A program made the translations under genes and the position numbers. The notes below the pieces were generated by a model. It saw only the letters and a program-made list of their open reading frames with translations. It made no database searches and was not told the origin of the DNA. From an uncultured virus (IMG/VR IMGVR_UViG_3300034418_006598) (Duplodnaviria > Heunggongvirae > Uroviricota > Caudoviricetes), in IMG/VR virus record IMGVR_UViG_3300034418_006598: a stretch of DNA of 20,000 nucleotides; one strand, given 5' to 3'. Below are positions 1-19,205 of this stretch, piece by piece. Within the stretch, counting starts at the first letter, position 1. The number at the start of each line of letters is the position of its first letter.

Positions 1-405
1 CGGGAAGTGTTAGATGATGGTTCTGAGGTGATGTTGGAGCCGGATCAGAACGCTGTTCGTACGGTGTTGGGTATTATGGATCGTCGTGCGAAGCTTTTGG
101 GTATGAATGTGGAGCGTGCTGTGGTTGAGTTGCAGATGGATGGGGGTGGTGGGGATACCATTGATGTTCGGAGTAGTTTGGCTGGTGCTGCTGGTGGTGA
201 GGTGTTGGAGACGGGGGAGGCTGCGAAGGCGGAGTCGTTGCAGTTGTTGGAGTTGATGGCTTCGTCTGGGGTTTTGGATGAGGGTGTTGTTGGGGATATT
301 TTGTCTAGTGTTGAGGAGCGTGGTGGTTTGGAGGAGGATAGGGTTGAGTTGGATGATTTGGATGTTGTTGATGCTGAGATTGTTGATGAAAGTGAGGATT
401 TGTGA
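1..405 (+). CDS. Partial (5' truncated) terminase small subunit-like / HTH phage protein with acidic tail
   Basis: Frame is open from base 1. AVRTVLGIMDRRAKLLG resembles the 'vl.imdRRAKLLGl' motif of actinophage small-terminase-like proteins. The stop overlaps the next ATG (TGATG). Confidence 0.5.
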   Translation, partial: REVLDDGSEVMLEPDQNAVRTVLGIMDRRAKLLGMNVERAVVELQMDGGGGDTIDVRSSLAGAAGGEVLETGEAAKAESLQLLELMASSGVLDEGVVGDILSSVEERGGLEEDRVELDDLDVVDAEIVDESEDL

Positions 406-734
406 TGTCTAGTGATTATTTGAAGAAGACGTTGTTGGCTGATGAGGTTGCTCGGGCTGAGGCGGTTGGTGCTGTTGAGGCTGCTTTGGTTGAGTCTGTG
501 GCGGGGTCTGTGGATGAGGTGCGTGATAAGCAGGTGCTTATTCGTGTTTCTGAGTCGCAGCGGGATCAGTGGCAGGAGTGTGCGGAGGCTGATGGTTTGT
601 CGGTTTCTGAGTGGTTGCGTCAGATGGCGGATGCTCGGTGGCGTGAGGTGTTTACGTGTATGCATCCGTTGGAGAAGCGGAAGTCGTATCCGTGGTCTGA
701 GTTTTGTTTGGATTGTGGGTCTCGTTTGCGATAG
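405..734 (+). CDS. Ribbon-helix-helix (CopG/Arc-like) protein with C-terminal Cys/His metal-binding motif
   Basis: QVLIRVSESQRDQWQECAEADGLSVSEWLR fits the RHH pattern; CMH...CLDC tail; translationally coupled start. Confidence 0.6.
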   Translation: MSSDYLKKTLLADEVARAEAVGAVEAALVESVAGSVDEVRDKQVLIRVSESQRDQWQECAEADGLSVSEWLRQMADARWREVFTCMHPLEKRKSYPWSEFCLDCGSRLR

Positions 735-745
735 TTTGGGTACGT

Positions 746-781
746 AAAAGGGGGGACCCTCGTGTGGGGGTCCCCCTTTTT
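746..781. terminator. Bidirectional intrinsic terminator
   Basis: AAAAGGGGGGACCC...GGGTCCCCCTTTTT hairpin flanked by A and T tracts, between a + strand gene and the - strand tRNA. Confidence 0.8.
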
Positions 782-967
782 GCGTTGTTGTTTGTTACAT
801 CCAGCGGCTGCGTGTTTTGGTGAGTTCTCGTTCGAGGTCGTCGGTTCAGAGTCTGCTCCTTTAGGGGTTATCTAACTTTTGGTATACCGTGGTGGGGTTT
901 GCTGGTTTTGGTGTGTGGGGGTGGTTGTGGTCACAGTGGGGATACCATTGGGTGTTGTAGTGGCTTG

Positions 968-1044
968 TGGTGGGGCAGGTGAGGCTTGAACTCACTTTCT
1001 CCGCCGTATAAGGACGGTGCATTTACCCGTTATGCTTCTGCCCC
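968..1044 (-). tRNA. tRNA-Ile (anticodon UAU), CCA encoded
   Basis: Reverse complement folds as GGGGCAG-AA-GCAT AACGGGTAA ATGC-A-CCGTC CTTATAC GGCGG-AGAAA-GTGAG TTCAAGC CTCAC-CTGCCCC-A-CCA; 77 nt; position 8 is A rather than U. Confidence 0.9.
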
Positions 1045-1084
1045 GGGTTTGTGGTAGACTATTTATATATTTTGGAGGTTTGTT

Positions 1085-1306
1085 GTGTCTGATATGAGTT
1101 TTCCGAGGGGGCCGGGTCGTCCGGCGAAGCGTGCGGTTGATGGGTTTGCGGGTTTGTCGTTTCGTGTGGATGCCCGGTTGAAGAATTTGTTGTTGGATAT
1201 TGCTGATGGGTATGACATGTCGATGACTGAGCTTCTTCGTTTGATGGCGTTGAAGGAGGCTGGGTTGGAGTCTCTTGATCAGTTTGAGGAAAATTTGGAT
1301 GAATGA
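1085..1306 (+). CDS. Small RHH-like DNA-binding protein with N-terminal GRP (AT-hook-like) motif
   Basis: GGAGG RBS at 1074-1078; PRGPGRPAK followed by LSFRVDARLKNLLLDIADGYDMSMTELLR. Confidence 0.65.
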   Translation: MSDMSFPRGPGRPAKRAVDGFAGLSFRVDARLKNLLLDIADGYDMSMTELLRLMALKEAGLESLDQFEENLDE

Positions 1307-1647
1307 TGGATGATAGTAATGCTTTGACGAAGCTCCACATTTCTGTTCCTGTTTGGTTGAAAAATGTTTTGCAGGAGGCGGCGGATGAGAAGGGCATGAG
1401 TGTGTCTCAGTTGTGTTGCTTCGTTTTAGATGCGGGCGCTAGGGACACCATTGAGCTTCCGAAGAGGCCGGATCCGGCTGCTCCGGTCCCTACCGTAGTT
1501 GACGTGTTGAGAGGGTACGTTGCTGGCGAGGGCGATAGGTTGATTGGGCCTTGCGGTGATCCGTGGCCTTGTAGTTATGATCCTGAGCAGGAGTTTGTGT
1601 TGGGTGAGTTTCGGTTCTGTCATTTTTGTGATGTGTGCGTAGGTTGA
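1303..1647 (+). CDS. RHH/HicB-C-like DNA-binding protein with Cys-rich C-terminus
   Basis: LHISVPVWLKNVLQEAADEKGMSVSQL pattern; C-x4-C...CHFCDVC tail; ATGA overlap with the upstream gene. Confidence 0.6.
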   Translation: MMDDSNALTKLHISVPVWLKNVLQEAADEKGMSVSQLCCFVLDAGARDTIELPKRPDPAAPVPTVVDVLRGYVAGEGDRLIGPCGDPWPCSYDPEQEFVLGEFRFCHFCDVCVG

Positions 1648-1915
1648 TTCGGGGCGGTTTCCATCTGGGGCTGGTGCGTCTGAGGTAGGCGGCTAGCCGG
1701 GGGTGTCGTTCTTCGGTGGCTGCGGGTAGCCAGACGTGTACTACGGCGTCGAGGGTGCGTAGGTACCGGCAGGGGCTGCCGAACCAGTAGCGGCTGGTGG
1801 CTGGCTTCTCGTGGATGCGCAGGTATCGGCTGACTTGTTGGGCGTTTACGTCCCAGGGGTCGAGGCCGATGCGGTCTGCGAGGATCCGGATGCCGATGTA
1901 GTAGTGGTGGAGCAT
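1490..1915 (-). CDS. Hypothetical protein
   Basis: The start overlaps the upstream stop (TGATG on the - strand). The last ~50 codons overlap the convergent gene 1303-1647. Confidence 0.5.
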   Translation of the reverse strand: MLHHYYIGIRILADRIGLDPWDVNAQQVSRYLRIHEKPATSRYWFGSPCRYLRTLDAVVHVWLPAATEERHPRLAAYLRRTSPRWKPPRINLRTHHKNDRTETHPTQTPAQDHNYKATDHRKAQSTYRPRQQRTLSTRQLR

Positions 1916-2352
1916 CAGGCTGGGAGGGGGTGTTCTCGGACGGTGGTCGCCTCTTCGCTCCAGTCACGGGTGTCGAGCCAGTCTGCAAGGTCTTGTAGGT
2001 CCTTGTAGGTCGCTCCTAGTACTTGCATGGTGCATACGAAGTCGTTGGTTTCGGGTTCGTACATGAATTTCATGTTGGGGTAACGGTAGCTGATTTTTAT
2101 GCCTTCTGTCTTTTGGATTTTACTTAGACGGTCGAGCGGGTTGCTTGGTGACTGGGGGTGGCCACCCAGCCCGAATGGGTCGTGTTCCCGGATACCGGCT
2201 GCCTGATCGAGCCAGTTATGGTCTTCGAGCCAGTCGGCAAACTCATAGATCTCAGTCATGGGCGCTCTTTTTAGTTCCATGCTGATGCGGTAGCCTTCGG
2301 GGGCTTCACTGCTGGGCCAATCTTGAGTGATGGTGATGGTGGATCCTGCCAT
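1915..2352 (-). CDS. Hypothetical protein with two internal repeats
   Basis: AAGGAAA RBS before ATG at 2352; repeats EFADWLEDHNWLDQAAGIREH and DLADWLDTRDWSEEATTVREH. Confidence 0.75.
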   Translation of the reverse strand: MAGSTITITQDWPSSEAPEGYRISMELKRAPMTEIYEFADWLEDHNWLDQAAGIREHDPFGLGGHPQSPSNPLDRLSKIQKTEGIKISYRYPNMKFMYEPETNDFVCTMQVLGATYKDLQDLADWLDTRDWSEEATTVREHPLPA

Positions 2353-2363
2353 GTTGGGTTTCC

Positions 2364-2717
2364 TTAGCTGTTGAGCCATTGGTCGAGGTCGTGGGCGGAG
2401 GTGGTCTGCTGTTCGTAAAGCTCTACGAACGCTTCGACTTTTTCGGCGTTGCGGAAGATCAATGTGAGGTCGTTGTAAATCTTGTTTCGATTATTGTTGC
2501 CCATGTGGAAGTCTGACATCGAGCAGCCGAGGATGGCGTGCTTGCAGGTGTCCATGCCGTAGTGGCGGAGGGCTGTAGCCAGCTTGTCCTTGCGCTTGTC
2601 GTCTAGGACGGTGGAGGTTCGCTTGTTGAAGGTGGTCTTCCAGAAGTCGAACAGGGCTTGTACGTCTTCGAGGGGTGCGCCGTTCCATTCTTGCTGGGGG
2701 AAAAGTTCATCTGTCAT
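2364..2717 (-). CDS. Protein resembling the C-terminal domain of phage replication initiators (alternative start 2741)
   Basis: FDFWK...LDDKRKDKL...YGMDTCKHAI...SDFHMGNN...YNDLTLIFRNAEKVEAF pattern; GGAG RBS before 2717. Confidence 0.55.
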   Translation of the reverse strand: MTDELFPQQEWNGAPLEDVQALFDFWKTTFNKRTSTVLDDKRKDKLATALRHYGMDTCKHAILGCSMSDFHMGNNNRNKIYNDLTLIFRNAEKVEAFVELYEQQTTSAHDLDQWLNS

Positions 2718-2850
2718 TTTTGAAAAGCTCCCGTGTGTCATTTCTTTTTAGTGTAGTGTAGTTAGTGAATGGTTGCTAGGGGTTAGTCACTGTTCGTTGC
2801 ATATCTACAGCTACTGCGGGTCGGGCGTACGGGCTGTAAGAGAACGGGAA

Positions 2851-2887
2851 AGACCCCCGCAGCGAGAGAGGTGCGCTGCGGGGGTCT
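2851..2887 (-). terminator. Hairpin terminator downstream of the vWA gene
   Basis: 14 bp stem AGACCCCCGCAGCG/CGCTGCGGGGGTCT followed by a pyrimidine-rich tract on the - strand. Confidence 0.65.
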
Positions 2888-2893
2888 CCTGTT

Positions 2894-4465
2894 TTAGCTG
2901 GCGATGTGTTCTCGCCAACGCTCTAGGATGCGGGGCTGTGGCTTCTCGCCTGCCTGCAATCCTCGAAGGTAGGTGATGGCATCGTCCACGCTGTATTCCA
3001 TGTGGACGCTGTTGCGGTGTGCAACCTTGGCACATTCCATCTCGTCCATGATGCCGCCTCCGTAGCCTCTGTAGACCATGCCGTCGGTGACCCAGAGGAC
3101 TGGGGCCTTGATGGTCTGCTTGAGGCTCAGGGCGTACTCCAGGGCGGGCAGGTCGTTGCCGTTGCCGCCGGGGAAGCGGGGAAGCTCAGCGCAGATTTTG
3201 CCCTTGTCGGCCAGGAGCCAGAGGTTGTGCTTGGAGTCGGCGGCGAACGATGCCGAGTGGGCAAGAACGGTGCAGCCGGGAGCGGCGAGCATGATGTTCT
3301 TTACCTGATCTTTGCTGAGGCTCATCGAGCCGGACACGTCGATCAGAACGACGCCACCCTGCGACTTGACCTTGCGGTCGAAGATGCGCTTCTCGGGGTC
3401 GGTGAGGTAGCGGACCATCCGGCGAGGGTTGCGTCCGACCTGGGACGGTCCTCGCTTGTAACCGATGGCTCCCTGCACCGTGGTGGTGAGAGGCATCTTG
3501 CGGAGGCTGACGGGGATCCATGAGCCTGAGCCGTAGAGTCCGACGTTGCCTTCGAGGAGCCGCTTGGCTTTCTCCTGAATCTCCTTGCGGTCGATCGGCT
3601 GGTCTTGGTCTGCAAGCTCGGCTGCTTCGGCGTCGCCAGTTGTTCGCTTAAGGTTTTCGGGATCAAGTTCGCTTTCACCTTCGGTGGGTTCAGCGTCCTC
3701 GGTCTCGTCCTGCTGCGGCGGCTTGGGGGGCATCGAGGCGATGGACTCGATCATGAGTGCCATCTCGATGCTGTAGTTCATCCCTTCGATCCGGTCGGTT
3801 TGGACGTTGCGTCCGGTGACATGATCGTAGCTGAAGAACGGAGTGGTGCTGCCGTAGTACCCGAGGGTGCCTGCTTCGTCAGCGTACTTGAAGCTGCCGT
3901 ACTTGCCCTTCTTGATCTTCTTGATCTGGTTTTTCTGGTACTTGACAAGCTCCGATGCGATGGTGCGTGCCGAGTCGGCCCATGCCGGGTTCTCCTTGCG
4001 GATGCCGGAGATGAGCGGGGTGAGGCTGCCGGTGTTGATCGAAGCTGCGACTGCGCAGACGAGTGCGTTCCAGTCGCCCTGCTTTGCGATCATCTCACCT
4101 TCGTGCCGTTCGGAGCCGGTGATGAGGGCTTTCATCGGGAACCCAAGTTCCTGGGCGATAAAGTTTACCCTGGCTTCTTCGGCTGCACGGATGGCGTCTT
4201 CACCGACGGCCTCGTTGACATAGGGGGTAATGTCGGCGGGTGAGACCTTGACATGAACCTGCTCGTGACCACGGATGGCACGGGCAAGCTCGGAGTCGTC
4301 CAACGGGACTCGCATGATGCGTCCGGAGACCGTGATGAACGGTTCGCCTCGGACGGCTTTGGCGTTGCCAACGTCCCAACCACCGCTGTTGCGGAGATCC
4401 TGGCGTCGGAACACTTCAGGCATTGGCCTGTTCTTGTTCTGAATCTGTTCTTCGATGTTAGCCAT
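2894..4465 (-). CDS. Metallopeptidase-like (HExxH) plus von Willebrand factor A domain protein (CobT-like AAA partner)
   Basis: GHEQVH and EEARVN in the N-terminal part; acidic linker; MIDAS motif VLIDVSGS and WVTDG in the C-terminal part; AGAGAGGA RBS before ATG 4465. Confidence 0.8.
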   Translation of the reverse strand: MANIEEQIQNKNRPMPEVFRRQDLRNSGGWDVGNAKAVRGEPFITVSGRIMRVPLDDSELARAIRGHEQVHVKVSPADITPYVNEAVGEDAIRAAEEARVNFIAQELGFPMKALITGSERHEGEMIAKQGDWNALVCAVAASINTGSLTPLISGIRKENPAWADSARTIASELVKYQKNQIKKIKKGKYGSFKYADEAGTLGYYGSTTPFFSYDHVTGRNVQTDRIEGMNYSIEMALMIESIASMPPKPPQQDETEDAEPTEGESELDPENLKRTTGDAEAAELADQDQPIDRKEIQEKAKRLLEGNVGLYGSGSWIPVSLRKMPLTTTVQGAIGYKRGPSQVGRNPRRMVRYLTDPEKRIFDRKVKSQGGVVLIDVSGSMSLSKDQVKNIMLAAPGCTVLAHSASFAADSKHNLWLLADKGKICAELPRFPGGNGNDLPALEYALSLKQTIKAPVLWVTDGMVYRGYGGGIMDEMECAKVAHRNSVHMEYSVDDAITYLRGLQAGEKPQPRILERWREHIAS

Positions 4466-4502
4466 GGTATGTCCTCTCTGATGGCTAGGTGGTGTAATAA
4501 AG

Positions 4503-4551
4503 AGTGTAGCGGCCCGGAGTGGTATTCCAACCTCCGGGCCGCTACTTTTTT
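4503..4551 (-). promoter_or_regulatory. Hairpin-embedded promoter for the vWA gene; reads as an intrinsic terminator on the + strand
   Basis: On the - strand: A-tract, TTGGAA-N16-TACACT within a 14 bp stem GTAGCGGCCCGGAG/CTCCGGGCCGCTAC. On the + strand the stem is followed by TTTTTT. Confidence 0.65.
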
Positions 4552-4624
4552 GGAAAGGCGCCAACCACAACACCTTTCCATTGATGTGCCGGTCAGAACC
4601 CTAACTGACCTTTGGAGGCACGAT

Positions 4625-5353
4625 CTAGATGGTTGGTGTGCTGTCGATGGGCCGCATGGTGTCGATGGCGACTGCCTGCAAGAAGGCGTCGGCACGGTCA
4701 CCGAGGATAACCTTGGCTGCCTTTTCAGTGCCGAGGCGCTGGGACAGCTTGTTGAGCGACTGGAACAGTCGAAGCGACATGCGCTCCGATCCGGCGTCGG
4801 CCATCCGGTCGGCGTAGTCTCGCCATGCCATCGGCAGGGTTTCGAGAGCCAGCGGGTGCGGACGGTCGATGCGGATGCGGACCGGGAAGCGGTCGATGAG
4901 TGCCTGAGGCAGTTCTTCGATCTGCTCGACGTTGGTCGTCATGATGACTTGGTAGCCGTGGGCTGCGGTGTGCTTCTCACCGGTCACGGGATGTTCCCAG
5001 ATGGACGAGCCGTCGGAGTCGGTGATGTTGAGCAGGGTAGCGAACACATCGCCACCGGCCTTGTCGATCTCGTCTACGACGAGTCGGCCACCACTGGTCA
5101 TGGCCTTGACGGCGGCACCTTCGATCCATTCGAAGCCTCCGTCTGCGGACGGCAGGAAGCCGCCGGTAACGTCCATGTTGGTCATGTCGTCGGTGCAGGT
5201 GATGCGGTGCGACTCTTGGGCGTGCATCTTGTTGCAGTGTAGAGCGGTGAACGTCTTGCCGGTCCCGGGGGGTCCGTACAGGATGACTCGATCTACGCCT
5301 GCGTGGATGACCTCTTCAAAGAGCGTCCAGCAGTTGTCATTGTTGTCGTGCAT
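4625..5353 (-). CDS. MoxR/CbbQ/NirQ-type (CobS-like) AAA+ ATPase
   Basis: Walker A GPPGTGKT, Walker B LVVDEIDKA, sensor-1 MTTN, ALIDRF arginine finger; AGAGGAGG RBS before ATG 5353. Confidence 0.9.
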   Translation of the reverse strand: MHDNNDNCWTLFEEVIHAGVDRVILYGPPGTGKTFTALHCNKMHAQESHRITCTDDMTNMDVTGGFLPSADGGFEWIEGAAVKAMTSGGRLVVDEIDKAGGDVFATLLNITDSDGSSIWEHPVTGEKHTAAHGYQVIMTTNVEQIEELPQALIDRFPVRIRIDRPHPLALETLPMAWRDYADRMADAGSERMSLRLFQSLNKLSQRLGTEKAAKVILGDRADAFLQAVAIDTMRPIDSTPTI

Positions 5354-5393
5354 TGTGGTTGCGCCTCCTCTGGCACTTGTTGGTTCCCCCTCT

Positions 5394-5442
5394 AAGGTAG
5401 CGGGGGCTGGGTGGTTTACCAACCTCGTTGTGAAAGTTTTTC
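5394..5442 (-). promoter_or_regulatory. Promoter for the AAA ATPase (same family as the early promoters)
   Basis: AAAAACTTT...GAGG-TTGGTA-N17-TACCTT on the - strand. Confidence 0.65.
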
Positions 5443-5561
5443 TTGTGGCTGGTTGGCTGGGGACACCATTGGCAGTGGTAGACATGTGTCTGCTGCGGGG
5501 GGTGGCTTCAGCGCTGAGTTCGATGGTAGGGGTTGGGGGCCGGTTCGACAACCTGCAAGTG

Positions 5562-5577
5562 TGTGACATATGTCACA
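5562..5577. promoter_or_regulatory. CRP/GlxR-type box TGTGA-N6-TCACA
   Basis: Perfect palindrome TGTGACATATGTCACA in the divergent intergenic region. Confidence 0.55.
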
Positions 5578-5654
5578 TAAGTTGGGGGTGTGAAAGGGTG
5601 TGGTGCACGGTAAGGTGGGTACTGCCATCGACAACCACCTAGAGAGGACAAACC

Positions 5655-5858
5655 GTGGCTACGAAGAAGAAATACACCGTCAAGTTCAGTATCGACTTCT
5701 GTGGCGACTACGGCACCAAAGAGGTCATCGCATACGAAGAGCCTGACATGCACGAGTTGTGGGACATGGCTTTGGAGCATTTCCAGCCCGAGGCCGAGGT
5801 CATTGACGAGGAAGAACTCGAAGAAGGCGACGAAGGATACGAGGAAGAAGATGCCTAA
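5655..5858 (+). CDS. Small acidic hypothetical protein
   Basis: AGAGAGGA RBS, GTG start, very acidic C-terminus. Confidence 0.75.
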   Translation: MATKKKYTVKFSIDFCGDYGTKEVIAYEEPDMHELWDMALEHFQPEAEVIDEEELEEGDEGYEEEDA

Positions 5859-6483
5859 TCTTTGCGGTAACATTTTGTGGATGCGGTTCCCGACGCCAGA
5901 GGAAGCTGAGGCTTTCGTGGTAACCGTTGAGAACGGAGACGGTCTGGCCCGTACGTTCATGCCGATGCCTGAGGTGTTGGAGGGTACACGCTCTCCAACG
6001 CCGGAGGGCGAGTTCGATCCCAACGGACGCTTCCAAGCGTTCGTGGACGACCCGGCCAACGAGTATTGGACTCCCGAGCACTACGAGGAAGAGAAGGCTG
6101 AGCACTACCTGCTGGTCGAAAAGTCTAAGCAGGCTTTCGCTGAGACGACCTTCCACAACTGGTACGATTGGGCCACCGGCTGTTGGGGTACCAAGTGGGG
6201 CGACTACGATCTTCAGATTGAAGCCTATGCCTCGGTTGTCGAAGCATCGTACACGACGGCTTGGGGACCGATGAGCGATTACTTCTTTGAAACTTTGTCT
6301 GAGAAGTTCCCCACGGCTCAGATTCTGATGGACTACGAGGAGCCTGGAATGGGCTTCCAGGGTGCTGCAAGTTTCTTCAACGGGCAGTGTGTGTTTTCGG
6401 AGTCGCAGGAGTATCGTGACTTGAAGTATGCTGCCGAGTTCGCCTTGGACGAGGCTGTCGATAGTTTGGCTAAGGAGAGCTGA
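5851..6483 (+). CDS. DUF1281/YubB ferredoxin-like domain (Api92-like) protein
   Basis: MPNxCxN start, NWYDW...WGTKW, YTTAWGP, LSEKFP and YEEPGMGFQG motifs. Confidence 0.75.
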   Translation: MPNLCGNILWMRFPTPEEAEAFVVTVENGDGLARTFMPMPEVLEGTRSPTPEGEFDPNGRFQAFVDDPANEYWTPEHYEEEKAEHYLLVEKSKQAFAETTFHNWYDWATGCWGTKWGDYDLQIEAYASVVEASYTTAWGPMSDYFFETLSEKFPTAQILMDYEEPGMGFQGAASFFNGQCVFSESQEYRDLKYAAEFALDEAVDSLAKES

Positions 6484-6487
6484 TGAC

Positions 6488-6835: not shown

Positions 6836-6836
6836 T

Positions 6837-7190: not shown

Positions 7191-7191
7191 C

Positions 7192-11206: not shown

Positions 11207-11210
11207 CCAT

Positions 11211-12228: not shown

Positions 12229-12243
12229 GCACAGGAGAGGAAC

Positions 12244-12516: not shown

Positions 12517-12608
12517 TGGGCTACCTCCCTCCGGGAGTCACTGACCGTCAGTTTCGGCGGACGCTAGCGTTTCTGCTCGGGGTCGTGCCGAACCTCGGAT
12601 AGTTTCCG

Positions 12609-12656
12609 AAAAACTTTAGCTAGCGGGGTGGGAAACGGTTCCTGCCCCGCTACGCT
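12609..12656 (+). promoter_or_regulatory. Hairpin-embedded promoter
   Basis: AAAAACTTT, GTGGGA-N17-TACGCT; stem TAGCGGGGTGGGAA/TTCCTGCCCCGCTA. Confidence 0.65.
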
Positions 12657-12704
12657 TAGAAGAAGTGGAGCGACCGCTCCCGCAGGGTAGGAGGCCCTAA
12701 CAGT

Positions 12705-12941
12705 ATGACACTCCCCAACTACGACGCATGGCTCACCACCAACACCTCCCAGGAATACTGGGACAAGGCGTACGAGCACTGGCTCAAGCACCACGCCGCC
12801 TGGGACTACGAGCGGGCCATCGACAACAACGATGTCAGCTACCACTCCCCTGATGTCATCGACACGCTCGAACAGTGGATCGACAGCGCCTGGGGCGAAC
12901 GGTACTTCGAGGCTTGGGAAGAAACCCAACGCCGAGACTGA
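12705..12941 (+). CDS. Trp-rich hypothetical protein (LPNYDAWLT start)
   Basis: AGGAGG RBS. Confidence 0.75.
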   Translation: MTLPNYDAWLTTNTSQEYWDKAYEHWLKHHAAWDYERAIDNNDVSYHSPDVIDTLEQWIDSAWGERYFEAWEETQRRD

Positions 12942-13009
12942 CCCGGCGGGGTCGGGGGCTTCGGCCCTCGGCTCCCCCTCCGGGGGTACCTGAGGGTCGT
13001 GGGTTCCCG

Positions 13010-13201
13010 ATGGCAGAGCCTGACCCGGACGATGAGTTCTGGTGGGACGCTGACGATTCCTGCCTGGCAGACATGAGCGGTGACGTGCTTGTGGTTGCTG
13101 TTGGCGATGACTACCGACACCGAGTGAGCGTGAAAGACTTGCTCCCAATCCCGGACGACGACTATTGTGGGTCGTGCGGCCAAACCGGCTGCGCCCACTG
13201 A
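13010..13201 (+). CDS. Small acidic protein with C-terminal YCGSCGQTGC motif
   Basis: Protein-like composition; RBS weak, so the start is uncertain. Confidence 0.6.
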   Translation: MAEPDPDDEFWWDADDSCLADMSGDVLVVAVGDDYRHRVSVKDLLPIPDDDYCGSCGQTGCAH

Positions 13202-13212
13202 GAGGAAGCACA

Positions 13213-13338
13213 ATGAAGGACAGAGCTATGGACGAAGACGGAAACGTCTTGGTAGGAATCTTCTGGGCGACCGTGTTCAGCATCCCCTTGTGGATTCTGA
13301 TTGCACTCGCCACCCGAGCCGTATGGGGGCTTCTCTAA
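13213..13338 (+). CDS. 41 aa membrane peptide (not in ORF track)
   Basis: GAGGA RBS; MKDRAMDEDGNVLVGIFWATVFSIPLWILIALATRAVWGLL. Confidence 0.6.
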   Translation: MKDRAMDEDGNVLVGIFWATVFSIPLWILIALATRAVWGLL

Positions 13339-13417
13339 TGGACGACGAACGAGAGTTCTGGATCATCCCTGAGGCTGAGGGCAAGTAAGGCTCTCAAAAG
13401 AAAATGTTACCTAGGCG

Positions 13418-13445
13418 TTGGTTTCTTCGCAGAAACCGCTACCCT
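13418..13445 (+). promoter_or_regulatory. Promoter
   Basis: A-tract, TTGGTT-N16-TACCCT. Confidence 0.6.
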
Positions 13446-13477
13446 AAGTAATAGGACACAAGGGAAGGAAACAAGCT

Positions 13478-13654
13478 ATGTGGTCCGGAAATGACGCCGC
13501 CGAAACGAAGCGGCTTCGCAACAAGGCCCGCCTCAAGGACGGGCAGTGCCTGTTCTGCAAGCCGCACCGTGGTGAGAACCACGGCAAGCGGGACGGCAAG
13601 TACCTTTGGCCGAACGGAGAGTTCCGACCCTCCAAGAGCAAGGCGAAGAAGTGA
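13478..13654 (+). CDS. 58 aa basic protein with CxxCxxH motif (not in ORF track)
   Basis: GAAGGA RBS; MWSGNDAAETKRLRNKARLKDGQCLFCKPHRGEN...KSKAKK. Confidence 0.6.
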   Translation: MWSGNDAAETKRLRNKARLKDGQCLFCKPHRGENHGKRDGKYLWPNGEFRPSKSKAKK

Positions 13655-13743
13655 GTATCTTCATCTGGGCCATCGGTATCGGGCTGTACGTCCTCTTCGA
13701 GACTCACCGCACCCGGTGAGTCTCGGAGGGGGCGACCCCTGCC

Positions 13744-13927
13744 GTGGGGCACCATAGGTAGTGATAGACACACAACCTTTGAGCGGGAGATGCTGGCCCG
13801 CCTCCGGCGGCGCCCCTTCGGTCGAGGCGAACATTTGTTCGTTCCACTATGTGGAACAGTTCCGTATTGTGGGACGCAAAGAAATCTTACCTAGCACGTT
13901 GGTAAACCGTGCTCGATGCCCTACCCT
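13744..13927 (+). repeat. Composite intergenic module, copy 2
   Basis: Polar motif variant 13744, CGAACATTTGTTCG 13828-13841, palindromes 13841-13857 and 13859-13875, promoter TTGGTA-N17-TACCCT. Confidence 0.85.
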
Positions 13928-14042
13928 AAAGGGTGGCGCTGATGACGGACCGTCCGTTCTCACCGTCAGGGAGTACCCATGTTCTCATCCGAACAGATCA
14001 TCAAGGCGGCGATGACCCGCCTCTACTGACAAGGAGTTGTCA

Positions 14043-14189
14043 ATGAAGTCCAACCAGGCCCAGAACACGGGCTACCCCGCCCACTGCTCGACGATCTACG
14101 CCGAGCGCCCGGACCCGACCACCCTCAATCGCACCATCCATCTCATCCACGGCGCACGGTCGCCCTTCCCCAAGGAGAACAACCGATGA
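14043..14189 (+). CDS. 48 aa hypothetical peptide (not in ORF track)
   Basis: AAGGAG RBS; ATGA overlap with the next gene. Confidence 0.55.
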   Translation: MKSNQAQNTGYPAHCSTIYAERPDPTTLNRTIHLIHGARSPFPKENNR

Positions 14190-14506
14190 TGATCCATCCC
14201 ACCGAGCTGCAAGTGAACGACGTCCTGGTGACGGACGCACCGCACGCTGACCGTGTCATCAAGTGCGTGGCACGCAACGCCCAGGACGGCGCCGTCATGG
14301 CGACGGCGAAGTCCGGCAAGGAGTACCGCTACCTGCCGGTCGGTGACCTGGAGATCCAGCGCTCCCGGTACAACGTGTTCGTCGCCGGGTGCCCGTCGTG
14401 CGACGCACGCAAGGACGGCACCGACCCGCACGGTCCGGCTCACGAGGCGAGCGACCGGTGCGAGTCGCACCGCCGCCCGCACTGCTCGTGCGACCGGTGC
14501 TACTGA
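14186..14506 (+). CDS. Protein with C-terminal Cys/His-rich zinc-binding domain
   Basis: AAGGAG RBS; CPSC...PAHEASDRCES...HCSCDRCY. Confidence 0.75.
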   Translation: MMIHPTELQVNDVLVTDAPHADRVIKCVARNAQDGAVMATAKSGKEYRYLPVGDLEIQRSRYNVFVAGCPSCDARKDGTDPHGPAHEASDRCESHRRPHCSCDRCY

Positions 14507-14512
14507 CAGCCC

Positions 14513-14557
14513 TGTGACACACGTCACAGTGGAAGTCCTCAAGTTCCCCGATACACT
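14513..14557 (+). promoter_or_regulatory. CRP-type box abutting a promoter
   Basis: TGTGACACACGTCACA (14513-14528) followed directly by GTGGAA-N17-TACACT. Confidence 0.6.
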
Positions 14558-14600
14558 GACCGATACAGATACCATCACCCATACCAAAGGAACCACCACC

Positions 14601-14801
14601 GTGAAGACATCTCTCCTCAACCTCCGAGTCCGCACCGACGCCGGGTGGACCGGCATCGTGACCGGCCTGTCCCGGATCCCGGGCTACTATCAGGTGACCC
14701 CCGTGTCCCTCAAGGACGCCGCCCTCGGCATCGACGGGGAGCCGACCTCGGTCCCCTTCCTGCACGACGAGCTGACGGTCCTGCCGGAGCGTGGGCGATG
14801 A
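14601..14801 (+). CDS. Small beta-rich (SH3-like?) hypothetical protein
   Basis: AAAGGA RBS, GTG start, ATGA overlap with the next gene. Confidence 0.65.
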   Translation: MKTSLLNLRVRTDAGWTGIVTGLSRIPGYYQVTPVSLKDAALGIDGEPTSVPFLHDELTVLPERGR

Positions 14802-15019
14802 GCAGCTACGACGCCCGACTCGAAGCCCCGTACGAGAGGCGAGCCGCCATCGAGCACGACATCGAGCGTGTCGAGGAGGAGATCTGGAACGCTGACACCC
14901 CGCTGTCAGTGGCGCTGCGCCTCGTCACCGAGGCCGTGCCCGCCCCGCTGACCGAGCGCCTCGACGCCCTCGTCTCGGACTGGGCCGAGCTGATCGTGAG
15001 CGAGGGGTACCAGCTGTGA
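14798..15019 (+). CDS. Hypothetical protein (MSSYDARLEAPYE)
   Basis: Coupled start; strong codon bias. Confidence 0.7.
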   Translation: MSSYDARLEAPYERRAAIEHDIERVEEEIWNADTPLSVALRLVTEAVPAPLTERLDALVSDWAELIVSEGYQL

Positions 15020-15046
15020 GCGCCGACGACCGGCCCCCGGTACCCG

Positions 15047-15238
15047 TAGGGATACCATAGGCTCTGATAGACAAGCGCGTATGGGGGCGGGAGGGTCTCA
15101 CCCTCGGGCTGCTCGCCCGCCTCGCCGCTGTCGTCCGCCTGTTTGTCGCCTGTTCCGTATGGTGGAACTGTTCCACAATGCGGAACGTAAAAAAATCTCA
15201 GCTAGCACGTTGTGAAAGGGTGTGCAGGCCGGTACCGT
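15047..15238 (+). repeat. Composite intergenic module, copy 3 (no LexA-like box)
   Basis: Polar motif 15047, palindromes 15152-15168 and 15170-15186, A-tract, TTGTGA-N17-TACCGT. Confidence 0.8.
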
Positions 15239-15282
15239 AGGGGGTGCCGCTGGGGATCGACCTCAGGGCACTAGGAGGTACC

Positions 15283-15573
15283 GTGCAGACTTCACTGCCG
15301 AAACTGCTTGACGTGAGTCGGGCCAACCCCGACCGTGACGTGAAGGCGTCCACCTGGGTGGCCCACACTCACGCCGGACAGACCGACGTGTGGCACTACT
15401 CGACCCTGATGTTCACGGTGTCCGATGACCGTGACGTAGCGGCGATCTCGCCGGGTTGGGGATCGCAGTCCGACAAGGCCGGGGTGTCCCGCATCCTGCA
15501 GGGCTGGTCGGAAACGCCGACCGATGGCCCCGACCGGGTGCCGGTCCTCACCTACGCCGCCCTCTACGGGTGA
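15283..15573 (+). CDS. Hypothetical protein (WHYST...GWGSQSD)
   Basis: AGGAGG RBS before GTG. Confidence 0.75.
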   Translation: MQTSLPKLLDVSRANPDRDVKASTWVAHTHAGQTDVWHYSTLMFTVSDDRDVAAISPGWGSQSDKAGVSRILQGWSETPTDGPDRVPVLTYAALYG

Positions 15574-15674
15574 CGGGCAGGGGGTCGGGGTGGATGGTCC
15601 ACCCCGGCCCTGATGCCGTGCACCGGGAGGCCCTGACCCCGGCAAAAAGTTTCTGGAAAAGTTTGGGTGAAAGG

Positions 15675-15702
15675 TTGTTGTTCGTCCCGTGACCTGTAGA
15701 CT
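15675..15702 (+). promoter_or_regulatory. Promoter
   Basis: A-tracts, TTGTTG-N16-TAGACT. Confidence 0.55.
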
Positions 15703-15753
15703 GTTCTACAGGTGGCCGGAGGAGCCACCACCGACAGACTGGGAGGTCTGCAA

Positions 15754-15921
15754 ATGTCCATCATCTACGTGCCAACCAAGCGCCGCAAGATCAGTCGGGC
15801 GGCGTTCGGTCCCGGAGCGTTCCTCACCCGTGAGATGCGGGAGCGCCTGGAGGCCGCAGAGGCCCAGCGGGTCGCCCGGGATCACGCCCGGTGCGAGCGC
15901 CTGAACCAGGCGCAGGGCTAG
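15754..15921 (+). CDS. Small basic protein, paralogous to the N-terminus of 18134-18451
   Basis: GGAGG RBS; IIYVPTKRRKISR...GAFLT. Confidence 0.7.
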   Translation: MSIIYVPTKRRKISRAAFGPGAFLTREMRERLEAAEAQRVARDHARCERLNQAQG

Positions 15922-16034
15922 CGCCCAGGGGCGGGGGTCACACCCCGCCCCGCACCCCGGCCCGCCCCTGGCCGGGAGGCACCGACCCCGCATCGGCGCC
16001 CCGAAACTTTCTGCCAAGAAATCCGGCCCGGACG

Positions 16035-16062
16035 TTGGTTTCCTGACAGAACCTGCTACACT
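16035..16062 (+). promoter_or_regulatory. Promoter
   Basis: TTGGTT-N16-TACACT. Confidence 0.6.
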
Positions 16063-16091
16063 AGGAAGTGGTAAGGAAGAGGAGGGCCGAG

Positions 16092-16244
16092 ATGGCTCAG
16101 TTTGACAGGAGCGACGCACGTCGCCATCAGGAGAGGGTGGAGTGCGCCCGTGGGGTCTACGGCCCCGCTGCCAGCAGGGTTCTTGCGAACCGCAAGACCG
16201 ACAAGGAATGGGGGCAGTTCTATGCCCCTGAGGAGGGAGAGTGA
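16092..16244 (+). CDS. 50 aa hypothetical protein (not in ORF track)
   Basis: AGGAGG RBS; MAQFDRSDARRHQERVECARG... Confidence 0.55.
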   Translation: MAQFDRSDARRHQERVECARGVYGPAASRVLANRKTDKEWGQFYAPEEGE

Positions 16245-16247
16245 CCG

Positions 16248-16472
16248 ATGACTGACACCCCGACACCCGACCTCGTGGAACGGTTGCGAGTCAAGGTCCA
16301 CGGCGGTTATCCCGACGCAGATGCAATCGCTGCCGCCGACGAGATCGAACGGCTACAGGCGAGGTGCAAGCGGTGGGAGAACGCAGCGTTTCGGATGACC
16401 GGGATGTCGTCGATACGTGAGCGCAATGCTGAGTACCTCGCCGCCGCTACCGAGGAGCCGACCGATGACTGA
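16248..16472 (+). CDS. Phage 'DLVERLR...AADEIERL' coiled-coil protein
   Basis: GGAG RBS; characteristic motif. Confidence 0.75.
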   Translation: MTDTPTPDLVERLRVKVHGGYPDADAIAAADEIERLQARCKRWENAAFRMTGMSSIRERNAEYLAAATEEPTDD

Positions 16473-16746
16473 CACCCCGACACCCGGCGAAATCGTGAAG
16501 TGGCTGCTTGCCGATACGGCGTCGCTGGGGTGCGACTGCTCTTGGACGGATGCCGCAGACCGACCTAAGTCGTTGCGACAGATGGCCGCCGCCGAGATCG
16601 AACGGCTACAGGCGGAGGTCAACCTCGCTCGATCGGGAGACATCCCGCACCTGTTGGGGATGTTGGAAGCGTTCGACAGGCCCGCCCCGAAGTTCATCCA
16701 GACGAACCAAGACCGATGGAGAGAGGCCCTGTCCGATGACCGCTGA
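16465..16746 (+). CDS. Paralog with AAAEIERLQ motif
   Basis: GAGGAG RBS; same MTDTPTP start as the upstream gene. Confidence 0.7.
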   Translation: MTDTPTPGEIVKWLLADTASLGCDCSWTDAADRPKSLRQMAAAEIERLQAEVNLARSGDIPHLLGMLEAFDRPAPKFIQTNQDRWREALSDDR

Positions 16747-16912
16747 CCAGACACCCGACGTACGGCTGTTCTCGTTCACGCACCGAGGCGGCACCTACCA
16801 CCAAACCGTGATCGACGTTGGCCGCAAGGTCGAGGTCACCACATCCCCGACGGGGCGATCGGTTCATGTGTGGGTCGATGGCGTGAAGTGGGAACCGACC
16901 GATGACCGCTGA
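16736..16912 (+). CDS. Small beta-rich hypothetical protein
   Basis: GAGAGG RBS; shared junction motif. Confidence 0.65.
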   Translation: MTADQTPDVRLFSFTHRGGTYHQTVIDVGRKVEVTTSPTGRSVHVWVDGVKWEPTDDR

Positions 16913-17015
16913 CACCCCGCCCGACGAACTGAGGATCGGCACTGTGCGCTACGAACTCCGCGACGTCTCATCCGGTCGCTGCAAGCCGCCCGGCATCGGT
17001 AGCTACAAGGACTAG
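16902..17015 (+). CDS. 37 aa peptide or truncated cassette (not in ORF track)
   Basis: Begins with the same junction, MTADTPP. Confidence 0.4.
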   Translation: MTADTPPDELRIGTVRYELRDVSSGRCKPPGIGSYKD

Positions 17016-17060
17016 GATCACCTCCCCCCTGGGGGTGGGGGCTACGGCCCTCGCCCCCGC

Positions 17061-17252
17061 TGGGGACACCATCGGCAGGGATAGACACACAACCTTTGAG
17101 CGGGAGATGCTGACCCGCCTCCGGCGGCGCCCGCCTCCGCCCGCCTCCGTCCGCTTCCGCTCGCCGTTCCACATGGTGGACCCGTTCCACGATACGGAAC
17201 GCTGAAATATCTCACCTGACAGGGTGGAAAACGGTGCAGCAGCCGGTACTCT
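17061..17252 (+). repeat. Composite intergenic module, copy 4 (no LexA-like box)
   Basis: Polar motif 17061, about 50 bp nearly identical to copy 2, palindromes 17166-17182 and 17184-17200, GTGGAA-N17-TACTCT. Confidence 0.85.
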
Positions 17253-17303
17253 AGTGAATGGCGTTGGGGCCGGACGGTCCGCCTCCACCGCCTGGGAGAA
17301 ATC

Positions 17304-17768
17304 ATGATTGACCACTGCAAGCACGGCGTCTACGTCGGCGGCTGCGGCATCGACTGGATGTGCCACGCCTGCGAGATGGGCGACGTTGATCCGACGCCGA
17401 CCGAGGCTGCCGAGCACATGGTGACGGCGTTTGAGCGCTACATCAGCCGTCGCAGCGAGCTGCTGATGCTGATCGCATCGGCCAAGGCTGCCAACACCTC
17501 GGGTGATACGGCCCATCTGGACTCGCTCGCCGGTCGCATCCTGAACGGCGACCAGTCGCTGCTCGGTGCCGACAACTACGCCAACTTCCGCCGCGCCGTC
17601 AACAGCTGGCTGGAAGCCTGCGAGTGGGCCGAAGGGCCGGACGACAACGACTGGCTCGCCCGTCGCCACCGCATCCTCACCGAGCAGGAAATGGCATACC
17701 GTGAAGGTTGGGACATCAACGACCACATCGCCGCCCTTCCCCTTCACGTGCAGGAGGGCAGCTACTGA
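17304..17768 (+). CDS. Hypothetical protein with N-terminal CKHG...C...CxxC motif
   Basis: GGGAG RBS; strong codon bias. Confidence 0.8.
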   Translation: MIDHCKHGVYVGGCGIDWMCHACEMGDVDPTPTEAAEHMVTAFERYISRRSELLMLIASAKAANTSGDTAHLDSLAGRILNGDQSLLGADNYANFRRAVNSWLEACEWAEGPDDNDWLARRHRILTEQEMAYREGWDINDHIAALPLHVQEGSY

Positions 17769-17852
17769 ATCCTCCCCCCTCGCCCCGGTCCGGTTCACTC
17801 CGGGCCGGGGCGCCGGGGCCGGGGCCGACTTGCATTCTGGCCCGACCTGTGC

Positions 17853-18066
17853 TAGGGACACCATAGGTAGGGATAGACAAGCGCGTGCGTGCCGGGAGGT
17901 GCCCACCCGGGCGCAGCCCGCCTGCCGCCGAGCGTCCGCCGAGCGTCCGCCGGGGCGAACAGGCGTTCGTTCCGCATGGTGGAACAGTTCCGCATCGTGG
18001 AACCGAAACATTGGTCGAAATTTCTTTGGTGAAATGTGCCGCAACCCGTCCGAATGGGTGTACACT
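17853..18066 (+). repeat. Composite intergenic module, copy 5
   Basis: Polar motif 17853, CGAACAGGCGTTCG 17956-17969, palindromes 17969-17985 and 17987-18003, -10 TACACT 18061. Confidence 0.8.
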
Positions 18067-18133
18067 CGGTTCTACCGACACCGAGTCGGTGCCCCGCAGA
18101 TAGGGGCAGGATCCAGAACCGGGAGGGTTCACC

Positions 18134-18451
18134 ATGGATACCAAGATTGTTCACATCCCGATGCAGCGTCGGCCCATCAGCCGCAACCGCACGGGCGGCT
18201 TCCTCACCAAGGCCGAGAAGAAGGCCATGCAGGCCGAGGAAACCGCACGAGTCGAGCGTGACCGCCAGCGCTGCTACTGGGCCAACATGCTCGCCGCCCT
18301 AGAGGGTTGCCTGGTTCCGGGCTACGACCTCCACGGCCAGCGCATCGAGGCCGAGGCCACCGACGCCGACGCCGACGACGCCGAGGCCGAGGCCATCGAG
18401 CGTGCCGCCGAGCAGTCCGCCGAGGACAACCTGGGCGGCTTTACCGACTGA
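18134..18451 (+). CDS. Hypothetical protein with basic N-terminus and acidic C-terminus
   Basis: GGAGG RBS; IVHIPMQRRPISR...GGFLT. Confidence 0.75.
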   Translation: MDTKIVHIPMQRRPISRNRTGGFLTKAEKKAMQAEETARVERDRQRCYWANMLAALEGCLVPGYDLHGQRIEAEATDADADDAEAEAIERAAEQSAEDNLGGFTD

Positions 18452-18529
18452 TTCCTCCCCCGACCCCGGCCCGGTTCCCCCACCGGGTCGGGGCTACGGG
18501 AGCGACTTGCAATCCGGCGCAGGGTGTTC

Positions 18530-18577
18530 CCCCACACCTCGCCCCACACCTCGCCCCACACCTCGCCCCACACCTCG
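18530..18577. repeat. Tandem repeat, 4 x CCCCACACCTCG
   Basis: Four exact 12 bp units. Confidence 0.95.
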
Positions 18578-18633
18578 GGGCACACCCGACCCAAAGCAAT
18601 ACGCCGAGGAAACTCGGCGGGAGGAAAGACACA

Positions 18634-18912
18634 ATGGATATTTACTGCACCACCTGCGGAGAACCCTGGGACGTTGAGTCCCTCCACGATGCCGTGGAAG
18701 AGGGCAACGCCGAGGACTACCAAGACGCCCGCATGATCTTCTTCGGATCAGGCTGCGGAACCCTGTTCAACCGCCGCCCCTGCGAGCGCCCCGAGACTGG
18801 TGGCCCCGCCGTCATGCGTGCCAACGTCACCGCCGCCCTGGTCGATGTTCTCGGGGATGACCTCGACGGGATCGCATCTGAGCTAGAAGGCGCTGCCTGG
18901 ATGTTCAAGTAA
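18634..18912 (+). CDS. Conserved phage hypothetical protein (MDIYCxxCGEPWD type)
   Basis: GGAGG RBS; characteristic start and LGDDLDGIAS end. Confidence 0.8.
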   Translation: MDIYCTTCGEPWDVESLHDAVEEGNAEDYQDARMIFFGSGCGTLFNRRPCERPETGGPAVMRANVTAALVDVLGDDLDGIASELEGAAWMFK

Positions 18913-18988
18913 GACCTCCCCCAAACCCCGCCCCGGCATCCGTCGGGGTGGGGTGACGGGTGGACTTGCGTCCCGGCCCGAAGTGTGG

Positions 18989-19205
18989 TAGGGACACCAT
19001 CGGCTCTGTTAGGGAGCGCAGCCGCCGCCGGGAGGTCCCGACCCCTCCCGCTGCCCTCCGCCTACCCCCCGCCGGAGGCGAACACTCGTTCGTGCGAACG
19101 CCTGTTCGTTCCACAATGCGGAATCGTTCCACAATGCGGAACGGCGAAATCTCTCAGATTTCTGGCACGACATCCACCGCAACCCGTGCGAACGGTGATA
19201 GGGTA
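18989..19205 (+). repeat. Composite intergenic module, copy 6 (two LexA-like boxes)
   Basis: Polar motif 18989, CGAACACTCGTTCG 19079-19092, CGAACGCCTGTTCG 19095-19108, palindromes 19108-19124 and 19126-19142. Confidence 0.8.

Follow-up and report, generated by a model that had tools for sequence, protein, structure and literature searches.

A strictly polar 12-nucleotide word heads the repeated leaders of small-gene cassettes in uncultured whiB-encoding phages

The DNA analysed here, a 20,000-nucleotide (nt) stretch of IMG/VR record IMGVR_UViG_3300034418_006598 from an uncultured Caudoviricetes virus (the window; 60.6% GC), carries three + strand ribbon-helix-helix (RHH) genes near its left end, a - strand operon at 1650-5353 and cassettes of small + strand genes. 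Dispersed among these genes are copies of a 12-nt word, TRGGGAYACCAT, which forms the 5' head of a ~250-nt regulatory leader repeated before the small-gene cassettes of this accessory region. As a cis element the word is genuine, under strong selection, clade-specific and strictly polar; it marks the 5' edge of leaders that resemble the PeSLs of T4-like myoviruses. Its copies, and the RHH genes that several of them adjoin, are arranged as follows.

402..1647, + strand: three RHH genes, RHH1 402-734 (NikA-like), RHH2 1085-1306 and RHH3 1303-1647, at the upstream edge of the word region
150..161, + strand: core-only copy TGGGGATACCAT inside the + strand open reading frame (ORF) 1..405, 252 nt before the RHH1 start (GTG 402)
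937..963, + strand: extended copy, 148 nt before the RHH2 start (GTG 1085, with a Shine-Dalgarno sequence), abutting a - strand tRNA-Ile gene
1440..1451, + strand: core-only copy inside the RHH3 gene (1303..1647), read A-R-D-T-I and facing convergent - strand genes
5458..5484, + strand: full copy in a divergent intergenic region, heading the leader of a + strand operon that begins at GTG 5655
7489..7515, + strand: full copy; its TAG (7489-7491) doubles as the stop codon that ends ORF 7192..7491, and the leader that it begins is that of the DUF932 gene (ATG 7798)
11406..11432, + strand: full copy heading a leader; next gene ATG 11627
13744..13770, + strand: mutated copy GTGGGGCACCAT with intact extension; next Shine-Dalgarno-supported start ATG 14043
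15047..15073, + strand: full copy heading a leader; next gene GTG 15283
17061..17087, + strand: full copy heading a leader; next gene ATG 17304
17853..17879, + strand: full copy preceded by TTGCAT-N17 with TGn before it; next gene ATG 18134
18989..19015, + strand: full copy preceded by TTGCGT-N17; next gene ATG 19254

A scan of the whole window recovered 10 exact matches to TRGGGAYACCAT (starting at 150, 937, 1440, 5458, 7489, 11406, 15047, 17061, 17853 and 18989), every one of them on the + strand, with no match on the - strand. In 200 dinucleotide-preserving shuffles the number of matches averaged 0.01 and never exceeded 1. With up to two mismatches there are 11 matches, again all on the + strand (4.16 expected, both strands), namely the 10 exact copies and a probable chance hit at 14564. 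The remaining copy, at 13744, is the variant GTGGGGCACCAT; because the orthologous place carries the canonical TAGGGACACCAT in 3/3 relatives, it is a derived, mutated copy. The resulting strand bias (11/11 copies) has a two-sided P of 0.001. ACCATnG and YACCAT are kept in all 11 copies, the 13744 variant included. The extension HGG-N6-TAG follows in 9 of the 11, being absent at 150 and 1440, and continues as TAGACA in six.

These counts bear out much of what an initial annotation of the window had reported. Its 11 + strand positions, its variant at 13744 and its lack of - strand copies were all reproduced, as were the rarity it had claimed for the word (0.01 matches expected in shuffles against 10 exact copies), the nine extended copies (with TAGACA in the six just mentioned), the two copies in coding sequence (150 and 1440, in ORFs 1..405 and 1303..1647) and the reused stop codon at 7489 (ORF 7192..7491). 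Its further claim, that orientation is independent of transcription because the 937 and 5458 copies adjoin - strand units, does not hold: both precede + strand genes (GTG 1085 and GTG 5655). Their - strand neighbours are only the tRNA-Ile gene (968-1044) and the divergent AAA ATPase gene (start 5353), and the - strand operon 1650-5353 contains no copy. For ten of the 11 copies, a + strand start codon with a Shine-Dalgarno sequence follows 148-309 nt downstream, the exception being 1440; zones at this distance before such starts make up 24% of the window (P=6e-6). The coding copies at 150 and 1440 share a reading frame (x-R/G-D-T-I).

An alignment of seven window sites places the 12-mer at the head of a repeated leader of ~250 nt, whose instances are mutually 70-80% identical. 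After TRGGGAYACCAT come nGG, a stretch of N6 (N7 in the related record G302), TAGA(c/a)A and a GC-rich foldable segment (CGGGAG..ACCCG in high-GC members, GTCCCG..CGGGAC in low-GC members). These are followed by one or two 16-18-bp palindromes, an A-tract, a host-type promoter-like site, an untranslated region (UTR), the Shine-Dalgarno sequence and the start codon. The host-type site lies 130-165 nt downstream of the 12-mer; a site of the form TTGnnA-N16/17-TAnnnT is present in six of the eight full leaders, 32-45 nt before the start codon. These proximal promoters vary with GC content, being of TTGACA/TTGTCA types in G302 and of TTGGnA/TACnnT types in the window. Rfam has no family at the leaders. 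The fold energies of eight window segments were not clearly better than those of shuffles (z -0.06 to -2.2), and we therefore give the leader stem no weight. The individual palindromes, read from the sequence, and the promoter-like sites, which are consensus matches only, are:

5562..5577: 16-bp perfect palindrome TGTGACATATGTCACA, immediately before the proximal promoter in the 5458 leader
11502..11536: tandem pair of 17-18-bp palindromes, GTTCCAC-N3-GYGGAAC, within the leader
13841-13875, 15161-15186, 17166-17200, 17969-18003 and 19106-19141: equivalent palindrome pairs in the leaders
5588..5616, + strand: promoter-like GTGTGA-N17-TAAGGT, with a UTR of ~32 nt to GTG 5655
7731..7759, + strand: promoter-like TTGGGA-N17-TACGGT, with a duplicate at 7643-7671
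11559..11586, + strand: promoter-like TTGGAA-N16-TACTAT
13899..13927, + strand: promoter-like TTGGTA-N17-TACCCT
15210..15238, + strand: promoter-like TTGTGA-N17-TACCGT
17224..17252, + strand: promoter-like GTGGAA-N17-TACTCT

The window matches positions 19529..1043 of a 121,926-bp metagenome contig at 99.86% identity and constitutes one end of this ~122-kb contig of an uncultured, whiB-encoding and probably actinobacterial myovirus. A second contig (122,949 bp) comes from a relative at 84-97% identity and has the same array in its interior. DNA runs containing the window are labelled as freshwater metagenomes, and no INPHARED phage gave a megablast match to it. Relatives in IMG/VR were found, independently of the word, through a 559-residue protein encoded at 2894-4573 (- strand) that combines an N-terminal HExxH motif with a C-terminal vWA MIDAS motif (DxSGS). 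This protein belongs to no whole-protein Pfam family and had no tblastn match among phages and plasmids, and its homologues, on contigs of phage size (up to 137 kb), number more than 231; with an AAA_5 (MoxR-like) ATPase it forms a conserved gene pair (window 2894-5353, - strand). An alignment of the vWA homologues retrieved 80 IMG/VR loci; a locus search with the single protein retrieved none. The DUF932 gene (window 7798-8694) is inverted relative to the AAA/vWA genes between the high-GC window and low-GC relatives (e.g. L053, G302:60041-60943).

The most informative relative, G302, is a whole IMG/VR record of 128,360 bp (42% GC, estimated completeness 87%). It encodes tail sheath, tube, baseplate, portal, large terminase and major head proteins, together with a family-A DNA polymerase, a ribonucleotide reductase, a sigma factor and WhiB-like proteins, a gene set that identifies it as a myovirus. 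Of the group's 36 records, 34 have WhiB genes; among 14 control genomes, WhiB was found only in Corynebacterium. Since published work uses WhiB as an actinophage marker (PMC10914622), the hosts are probably actinobacteria.

The word is a phage-specific element. The nearest metagenome-assembled genome (MAG), G001, carries 12 of its 12 copies on one related 20-kb contig and on a single strand; the other 300 genomes sampled from the order of G001 have 0-5 scattered copies each. A pattern scan of metagenomes returned 53 loci on 42 contigs, two of which are single-copy contigs that look cellular and unrelated. Counting the core gave 129 copies in the 42 contigs, with mixed strands in 0 of 28 multi-copy contigs, figures that are not independent counts, as many of the contigs are overlapping assemblies of similar phages. 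The identical 12-mer is found in contigs of 43-67% GC, and relatives of 42-66% GC keep it. A pattern scan of IMG/VR gave only six single matches, two of them later confirmed as true relatives. In the group defined through the vWA protein, the near lineage (vWA 50-56% identical) has 3-8 copies in 8/8 records, on one strand in each, and the 28 records of sister lineages (vWA at most 39% identical) have 0-3 scattered copies, which lie on both strands in G313 and G322.

Copies of the word are also confined to one region of the genome. All eight copies of G302 lie within 50,027-67,745 (17.7 kb, 14% of 128,360 bp), and such regional confinement holds in 9/9 word-bearing whole records (G302-G304, G307-G311 and G341). 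In the two ~122-kb contigs (Ga0208898_1000075 and WLWH01000028.1) the exact extended pattern is limited to one stretch of ~12-20 kb each. The rest of the genome, structural and replication modules included, has zero copies. The initial annotation had proposed an asymmetric, orientation-dependent element and had stated that similar numbers of copies on both strands, or absence from related phages, would refute that view; what we find is a non-random cis element that is kept in related phages and polar in them.

Comparison of orthologous copies indicates which letters are held constant. The 12-mer and G14 are invariant, with variation at position 13, at G15 and in the N6 stretch. All relatives (42-62% GC) keep every letter of the 1440 copy while its flanks have diverged, and the 150 copy has no counterpart at the orthologous position in low-GC relatives, which have their copy at another place within that gene. 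It is the DNA itself that is under selection. The conserved block comprises 15 contiguous positions, and 6-7 variable nt separate it from a second box, TAGA; viewed as boxes, TAGG(1-4), TAGG(12-15) and TAGA(22-25) are phased by 10-11 nt, and the GACACCA spacer between the first two is invariant. Low-GC relatives contain whole units duplicated at an exact 11-nt period.

Each sister lineage has a strictly polar word of its own, a 10-17-mer in 5-14 copies per ~20 kb (loci L077-L148). At L077 it is TGTCACACCC-N6-TACACT, ~30 nt before GGAGG and the start codon at 9/9 sites; at L090 it is TGTCCGACCCC-N5-TACACT, and at L102 TGACACACCC stands between TTGACC and TATACT. In the lineages examined, the sister words lie 5-6 nt upstream of TAnnnT and ~30-40 nt upstream of the Shine-Dalgarno sequence and ATG, and on that spacing they are part of a promoter. 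Further polar words of sister lineages (L135 and others) are (T)TGACGGTGGCGGAAAG and GTGAGTAGGTGA. The RHH3 genes of the sister lineages hold no lineage word that matches the RHH3-internal copy of the window. A second polar word also occurs in G302, namely (C)TTGACCGTAG; its 14 copies lie at 41165-50579 (- strand), all on the same strand as the first word and adjacent to its region; these are partly arranged as 11-nt tandems, are followed by the same type of stem and have ACC-R-TAGG in common with the first word. Together, the sister words and this second word make lineage-specific polar words at cassette leaders a general trait of the group.

With regard to function, we tentatively favour a reading, somewhat short of probable, in which the word is a phage-specific upstream promoter with YACCAT as its -10 element and a G two bases after it. 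Such a promoter would fire rightward, in tandem with the host-type promoter 130-165 nt downstream in the same leader, and TRGGGA would be an upstream extension that replaces the -35 element. The transcript would begin ~6-8 nt after CCAT and would take in TAGA and the GC-rich foldable segment. The word would be read by RNA polymerase with a phage sigma-A-like factor that has an altered -12-reading helix, or by host sigma-A together with a phage protein. Upstream of the 5458 copy there is no + strand gene, and this copy heads the first + strand operon of a divergent region, as would suit a start signal rather than an end signal. That one word is maintained across 42-66% GC while the proximal promoters shift with GC suggests a reader encoded by the phage.

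The proposed register rests on features of sigma-70-family promoters. In the open complex of this family, A-11, T-7 and a G two bases after the hexamer are bound as flipped-out or specifically contacted bases, the G by sigma region 1.2. If YACCAT is the -10 element, A8 would be A-11, T12 would be T-7 and G14 would be the base two past the hexamer, an agreement to be read with the caveat that most copies were found with a pattern that already demands the YACCAT bases. TACCAT also fits the TACnnT hexamers of the leaders' own proximal promoters. A competing register takes TAGGGA as the hexamer: TTGCAW stands exactly 17 bp upstream of it, with TGn just before, in 19 of 50 unique high-GC copies, all 19 from a few related leader subfamilies. 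The TGGGGA copies, in which A-11 is lost, do not fit this register, whose last base is A, not T. On these comparisons we would favour YACCAT over both TAGGGA and the registers of T7-group promoters. A separate proposal, that the word is a stop-codon module covering three frames, was rejected, the TAGs at positions 1, 12 and 22 covering only two frames in the window.

A candidate reader is encoded by the word-bearing phages. A sigma-70-family gene of ~310 codons is present in every word-bearing record that reaches far enough (G302, G303, G304, G309 and G341) and in 0 of 28 sister-lineage records, eight of which are at least 90% complete. In G302 it is located as follows.

G302:C1:71660-72592 (L155:11660-12592), - strand: phage sigma gene; family proteins P0121-P0210, ~300-310 residues

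The best solved relatives of this protein are mycobacterial SigA and Streptomyces HrdB, and regions 1.2, 2 and 4 are kept. In an alignment of 11 phage and four cellular sigmas, all phage proteins have WWCRQACQ where the cellular ones have WWIRQA(I/M)(T/Q). The differing residues are at 435, 439 and 440, which we take to be the E. coli sigma-70 positions in the helix recognising the -10 element at its -12 end: C, C and Q in the phage sigmas, and I, M or I, and T (3/4) or Q (1/4) in the cellular ones. An altered helix of this kind would fit the mostly-C base at -12 (CACCAT) and the unusual upstream extension. The strongest form of this idea is an orthogonal pair, in which the phage sigma-A homologue (WWCRQACQ) would read GGGA-CACCAT-nG without a -35 element in one aquatic actinophage clade and would drive accessory cassettes independently of the host-type promoter, allowing one unchanged word to serve in hosts whose phages span 42-66% GC; we regard this specific pairing as unlikely on present comparisons.

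PF00940, the T7-type RNA polymerase family, was found in 0 of 6 records (G001, G302-G306) and also in none of the control genomes, so the sensitivity of this search is unverified. The unassigned G302 ORFs of at least 780 residues (975, 1100 and 2434 residues) had no Pfam or PHROG function hit, and those of 975 and 2434 residues had no RNA polymerase match in PDB sequences or the protein atlas. The 2434-residue ORF (G302:C1:117653-124957, L159:54-7358, - strand) lies in the head-morphogenesis module, and the atlas cluster closest to it (score 0.92) is an unnamed viral protein.

Several observations weigh against a phage-specific promoter or against the sigma factor as its reader. The sequence 16-18 bp upstream of YACCAT shows no conserved -35 element, and the TTGCAW spacing described above would instead suit TAGGGA. 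None of the runs listed as containing window DNA is labelled RNA. Because six of the eight full leaders already have a host-type promoter, the word is not needed as one. The 1440 copy faces convergent genes, and at two of six G302 loci the first downstream ORF with a good hexamer score is on the other strand, without family hits. The 11-nt tandem units and the TAGR boxes phased by 10-11 nt would suit a protein array at least equally well. As for the sigma factor, its region 4.2 helix is unchanged from the standard form. Among 22 further sigma-bearing IMG/VR records, one has the array, one a single copy and 20 none; three large sigma-bearing records have no word within 24-34 kb at the sigma gene, and since they also lack the RHH genes they represent another phage group. 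Sigma gene and word mark the same single clade within the vWA/RHH group, which amounts to one evolutionary contrast. No phage-type sigma was found in MAG G001, the search covering part of the contig of the window's own phage.

The phased boxes lead directly to the best-surviving alternative, a polar operator or roadblock of the stoperator type, which we consider somewhat unlikely. A phage protein, for example an RHH protein, would bind the 12-mer and the phased TAGR boxes, and would block RNA polymerase arriving from the upstream cassette or tune its entry into the leader. An asymmetric site whose orientation is tied to gene direction would behave in this way, as would TAGG/TAGG/TAGA boxes one helical turn apart and low-GC units duplicated at 11 nt. 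The second polar word of G302, TTGACCGTAG, behaves alike and shares ACC-R-TAGG. The word is often located at the 3' end of the upstream gene and overlaps its stop codon at 7489, and the copies at 150, 937 and 1440 lie in or beside the RHH genes, as autoregulation would predict. Set against this, upstream of the 5458 copy there is no + strand transcription that could be blocked, the 130-165 nt between word and proximal promoter exceed the classical range of an operator, and recognition of the boxes alone leaves the invariant GACACCA spacer unexplained. No repressor or integrase was recognised among the scanned proteins. RHH1, RHH2 and RHH3 were found in 22/32, 24/32 and 31/36 group records, respectively, lineages without the word included; being group-wide, these proteins are not specific to the word lineage. 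The beta-strand residues of RHH3 likewise do not track the word types of the sister lineages.

The same strict co-orientation with genes would fit equally well if the word acted in RNA, where UAGGGACACCAU and the foldable segment could form a processing, stability or antitermination site of the boxA-boxB or put-like kind. The conserved block is followed ~20-25 nt later by a stem in both GC classes (GCGGG..CCCGC in high-GC, GTCCCG..CGGGAC in low-GC members), and in some low-GC copies a TATACT 5 nt upstream would put the word at the 5' end of a transcript. That TATACT is not general, however, and no + strand promoter was seen upstream of the 5458 copy. The stem register differs between the GC classes, the evidence from covariation is weak, and neither the fold energies of the eight segments (z -0.06 to -2.2) nor Rfam lends the stem clear support. 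We judge a signal of this type to be quite improbable.

The initial annotation had also raised the possibility of a nicking or recombination site that moves cassettes, with breakpoints between relatives mapping to the word. Cassette content does differ between close relatives: WLWH01000028.1 has a single leader where the window has two leaders and the cassette between them (13906..15044), and G001 has a different cassette between the same two leaders. Some homology blocks begin exactly at the word (15044/15046, in four relatives), and 16 of 48 distinct homology breakpoints fall within -100..+300 of the word, zones that make up 22% of the window; this excess is marginal (P=0.049), and the endpoints are not independent. 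Only one cassette indel is clean, and it looks like ordinary recombination between the ~170-nt repeated leaders. The breakpoint pattern is that expected from leader-leader recombination, so no site-specific enzyme is required; leader repeats of ~170-250 nt suffice for ordinary homologous recombination, as a study of PeSLs proposes (PMC4122927). The neighbourhood of the array yielded no recombinase or nickase gene, and the in-gene copies are not cassette borders. Site-specific recombination at the word is thus very improbable.

A genome-polarity signal for packaging, ejection or translocation (KOPS/Chi-like), also entertained in the initial annotation, is scarcely credible: the single-strand bias is as strict as such a signal would call for (129 copies, 0 of 28 multi-copy contigs mixed), but the copies follow local gene direction in one stretch instead of spanning the genome (14% of G302, and similarly in G303, G304, G307-G311 and G341), and a genome-wide signal is therefore excluded.

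The word belongs with phage-specific transcription-control words and regulatory cassettes; it does not form a new category. The leaders most closely recall PeSLs, which are composites of a short stem-loop and a sigma-70-type promoter, repeated and co-oriented in hyperplastic regions of small ORFs, where they flank ORFs that differ between close relatives; PmSLs are middle-mode versions with an extra regulator box (PMC4122927). In comparison, the leaders described here are longer (~250 nt), contain paired palindromes, belong to phages of probable actinobacterial hosts and carry a conserved asymmetric 12-mer that has no PeSL counterpart, whereas their stem-loop part is weak (z -0.06 to -2.2) and their link to indels marginal (16/48 vs 22%).

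Three other types of phage control word offer partial parallels. Stoperators of Cluster A mycobacteriophages (L5) are asymmetric 13-14-bp sites, present in many copies and oriented with transcription; they occur in both arms, throughout the genome, and a temperate phage's immunity repressor binds them. The present word shares with them its asymmetry and its many copies in an actinophage (11 on the + strand, 10 of the 11 upstream of + strand genes), but is restricted to one ~18-25-kb region and heads long leaders rather than occupying short intergenic gaps. Promoters read by phage sigma factors (SPO1 gp28, T4 middle/late, phiEco32 gp36) have conserved asymmetric words, can lack a -35 element and mark a temporal class. 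The likeness lies in a conserved, phage-specific word distinct from host promoters. In contrast to those systems, the candidate sigma here is near full-length and group-1/2-like with a standard region 4.2, its family is also present in phages without the word, and the genes concerned are small accessory genes, not late structural ones. Promoters of the T7 group (SP6, Syn5) resemble the word as compact polar sequences of ~15 nt with an ..ACAC.ATAG end and a putative start at G(G). Ten of 14 ungapped positions match the SP6 promoter string on inspection by eye, and Syn5 has GGGCACC in common with the 13744 variant. In this promoter type a single unbroken conserved block of ~19-23 bp extends from -17 to +6. 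They differ in that no single-subunit RNA polymerase gene was found here and the TAGA box is too far downstream.

Published texts offered little on the word itself. Full-text matches to its 10-mers were, among the matches listed, primer coincidences, and none concerned a phage motif; in the COBRA paper on whiB actinophages (PMC10914622), 'sigma' and 'promoter' do not occur.

The word provides a cis-regulatory handle on a large and widespread group of uncultured ~120-145-kb whiB actinophages from freshwater, estuarine and marine habitats; hardly any of their accessory genes has a known function. If it is a promoter with a phage-encoded reader, it would define a temporal gene class and offer a compact, host-independent promoter/sigma pair for actinobacteria; if it is a polar protein-binding site, it would extend stoperator-like logic beyond temperate mycobacteriophages. 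In either case, the word can be used to find members of the clade and the borders of cassette regions in metagenomes.

Several minor features of the window were also recorded. The tRNA-Ile gene (anticodon TAT; 968-1044, - strand; Rfam 61 bits, also called by ARAGORN) lies between RHH1 and RHH2 directly after the 937 copy. A second ARAGORN call, a tRNA-like fold with a 2-nt anticodon at 11233-11321, is without Rfam support and probably false. Just after RHH1, positions 742-785 form a hairpin with a 20-bp stem and T-runs on both sides, the sole strong intrinsic-terminator-like site in the window. Over positions 1-2500 the + strand shows an extreme excess of G+T (GC skew up to 0.53, AT skew -0.40) although it is the coding strand for the RHH genes. 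Towards the right end, perfect 12-nt tandem repeats (CCCCACACCTCG x4, 18530-18577) and an array of 11/36/47-nt repeats (CCCACACCCCG-like, 19697-19791), both on the + strand, are apparently located inside or between small ORFs.

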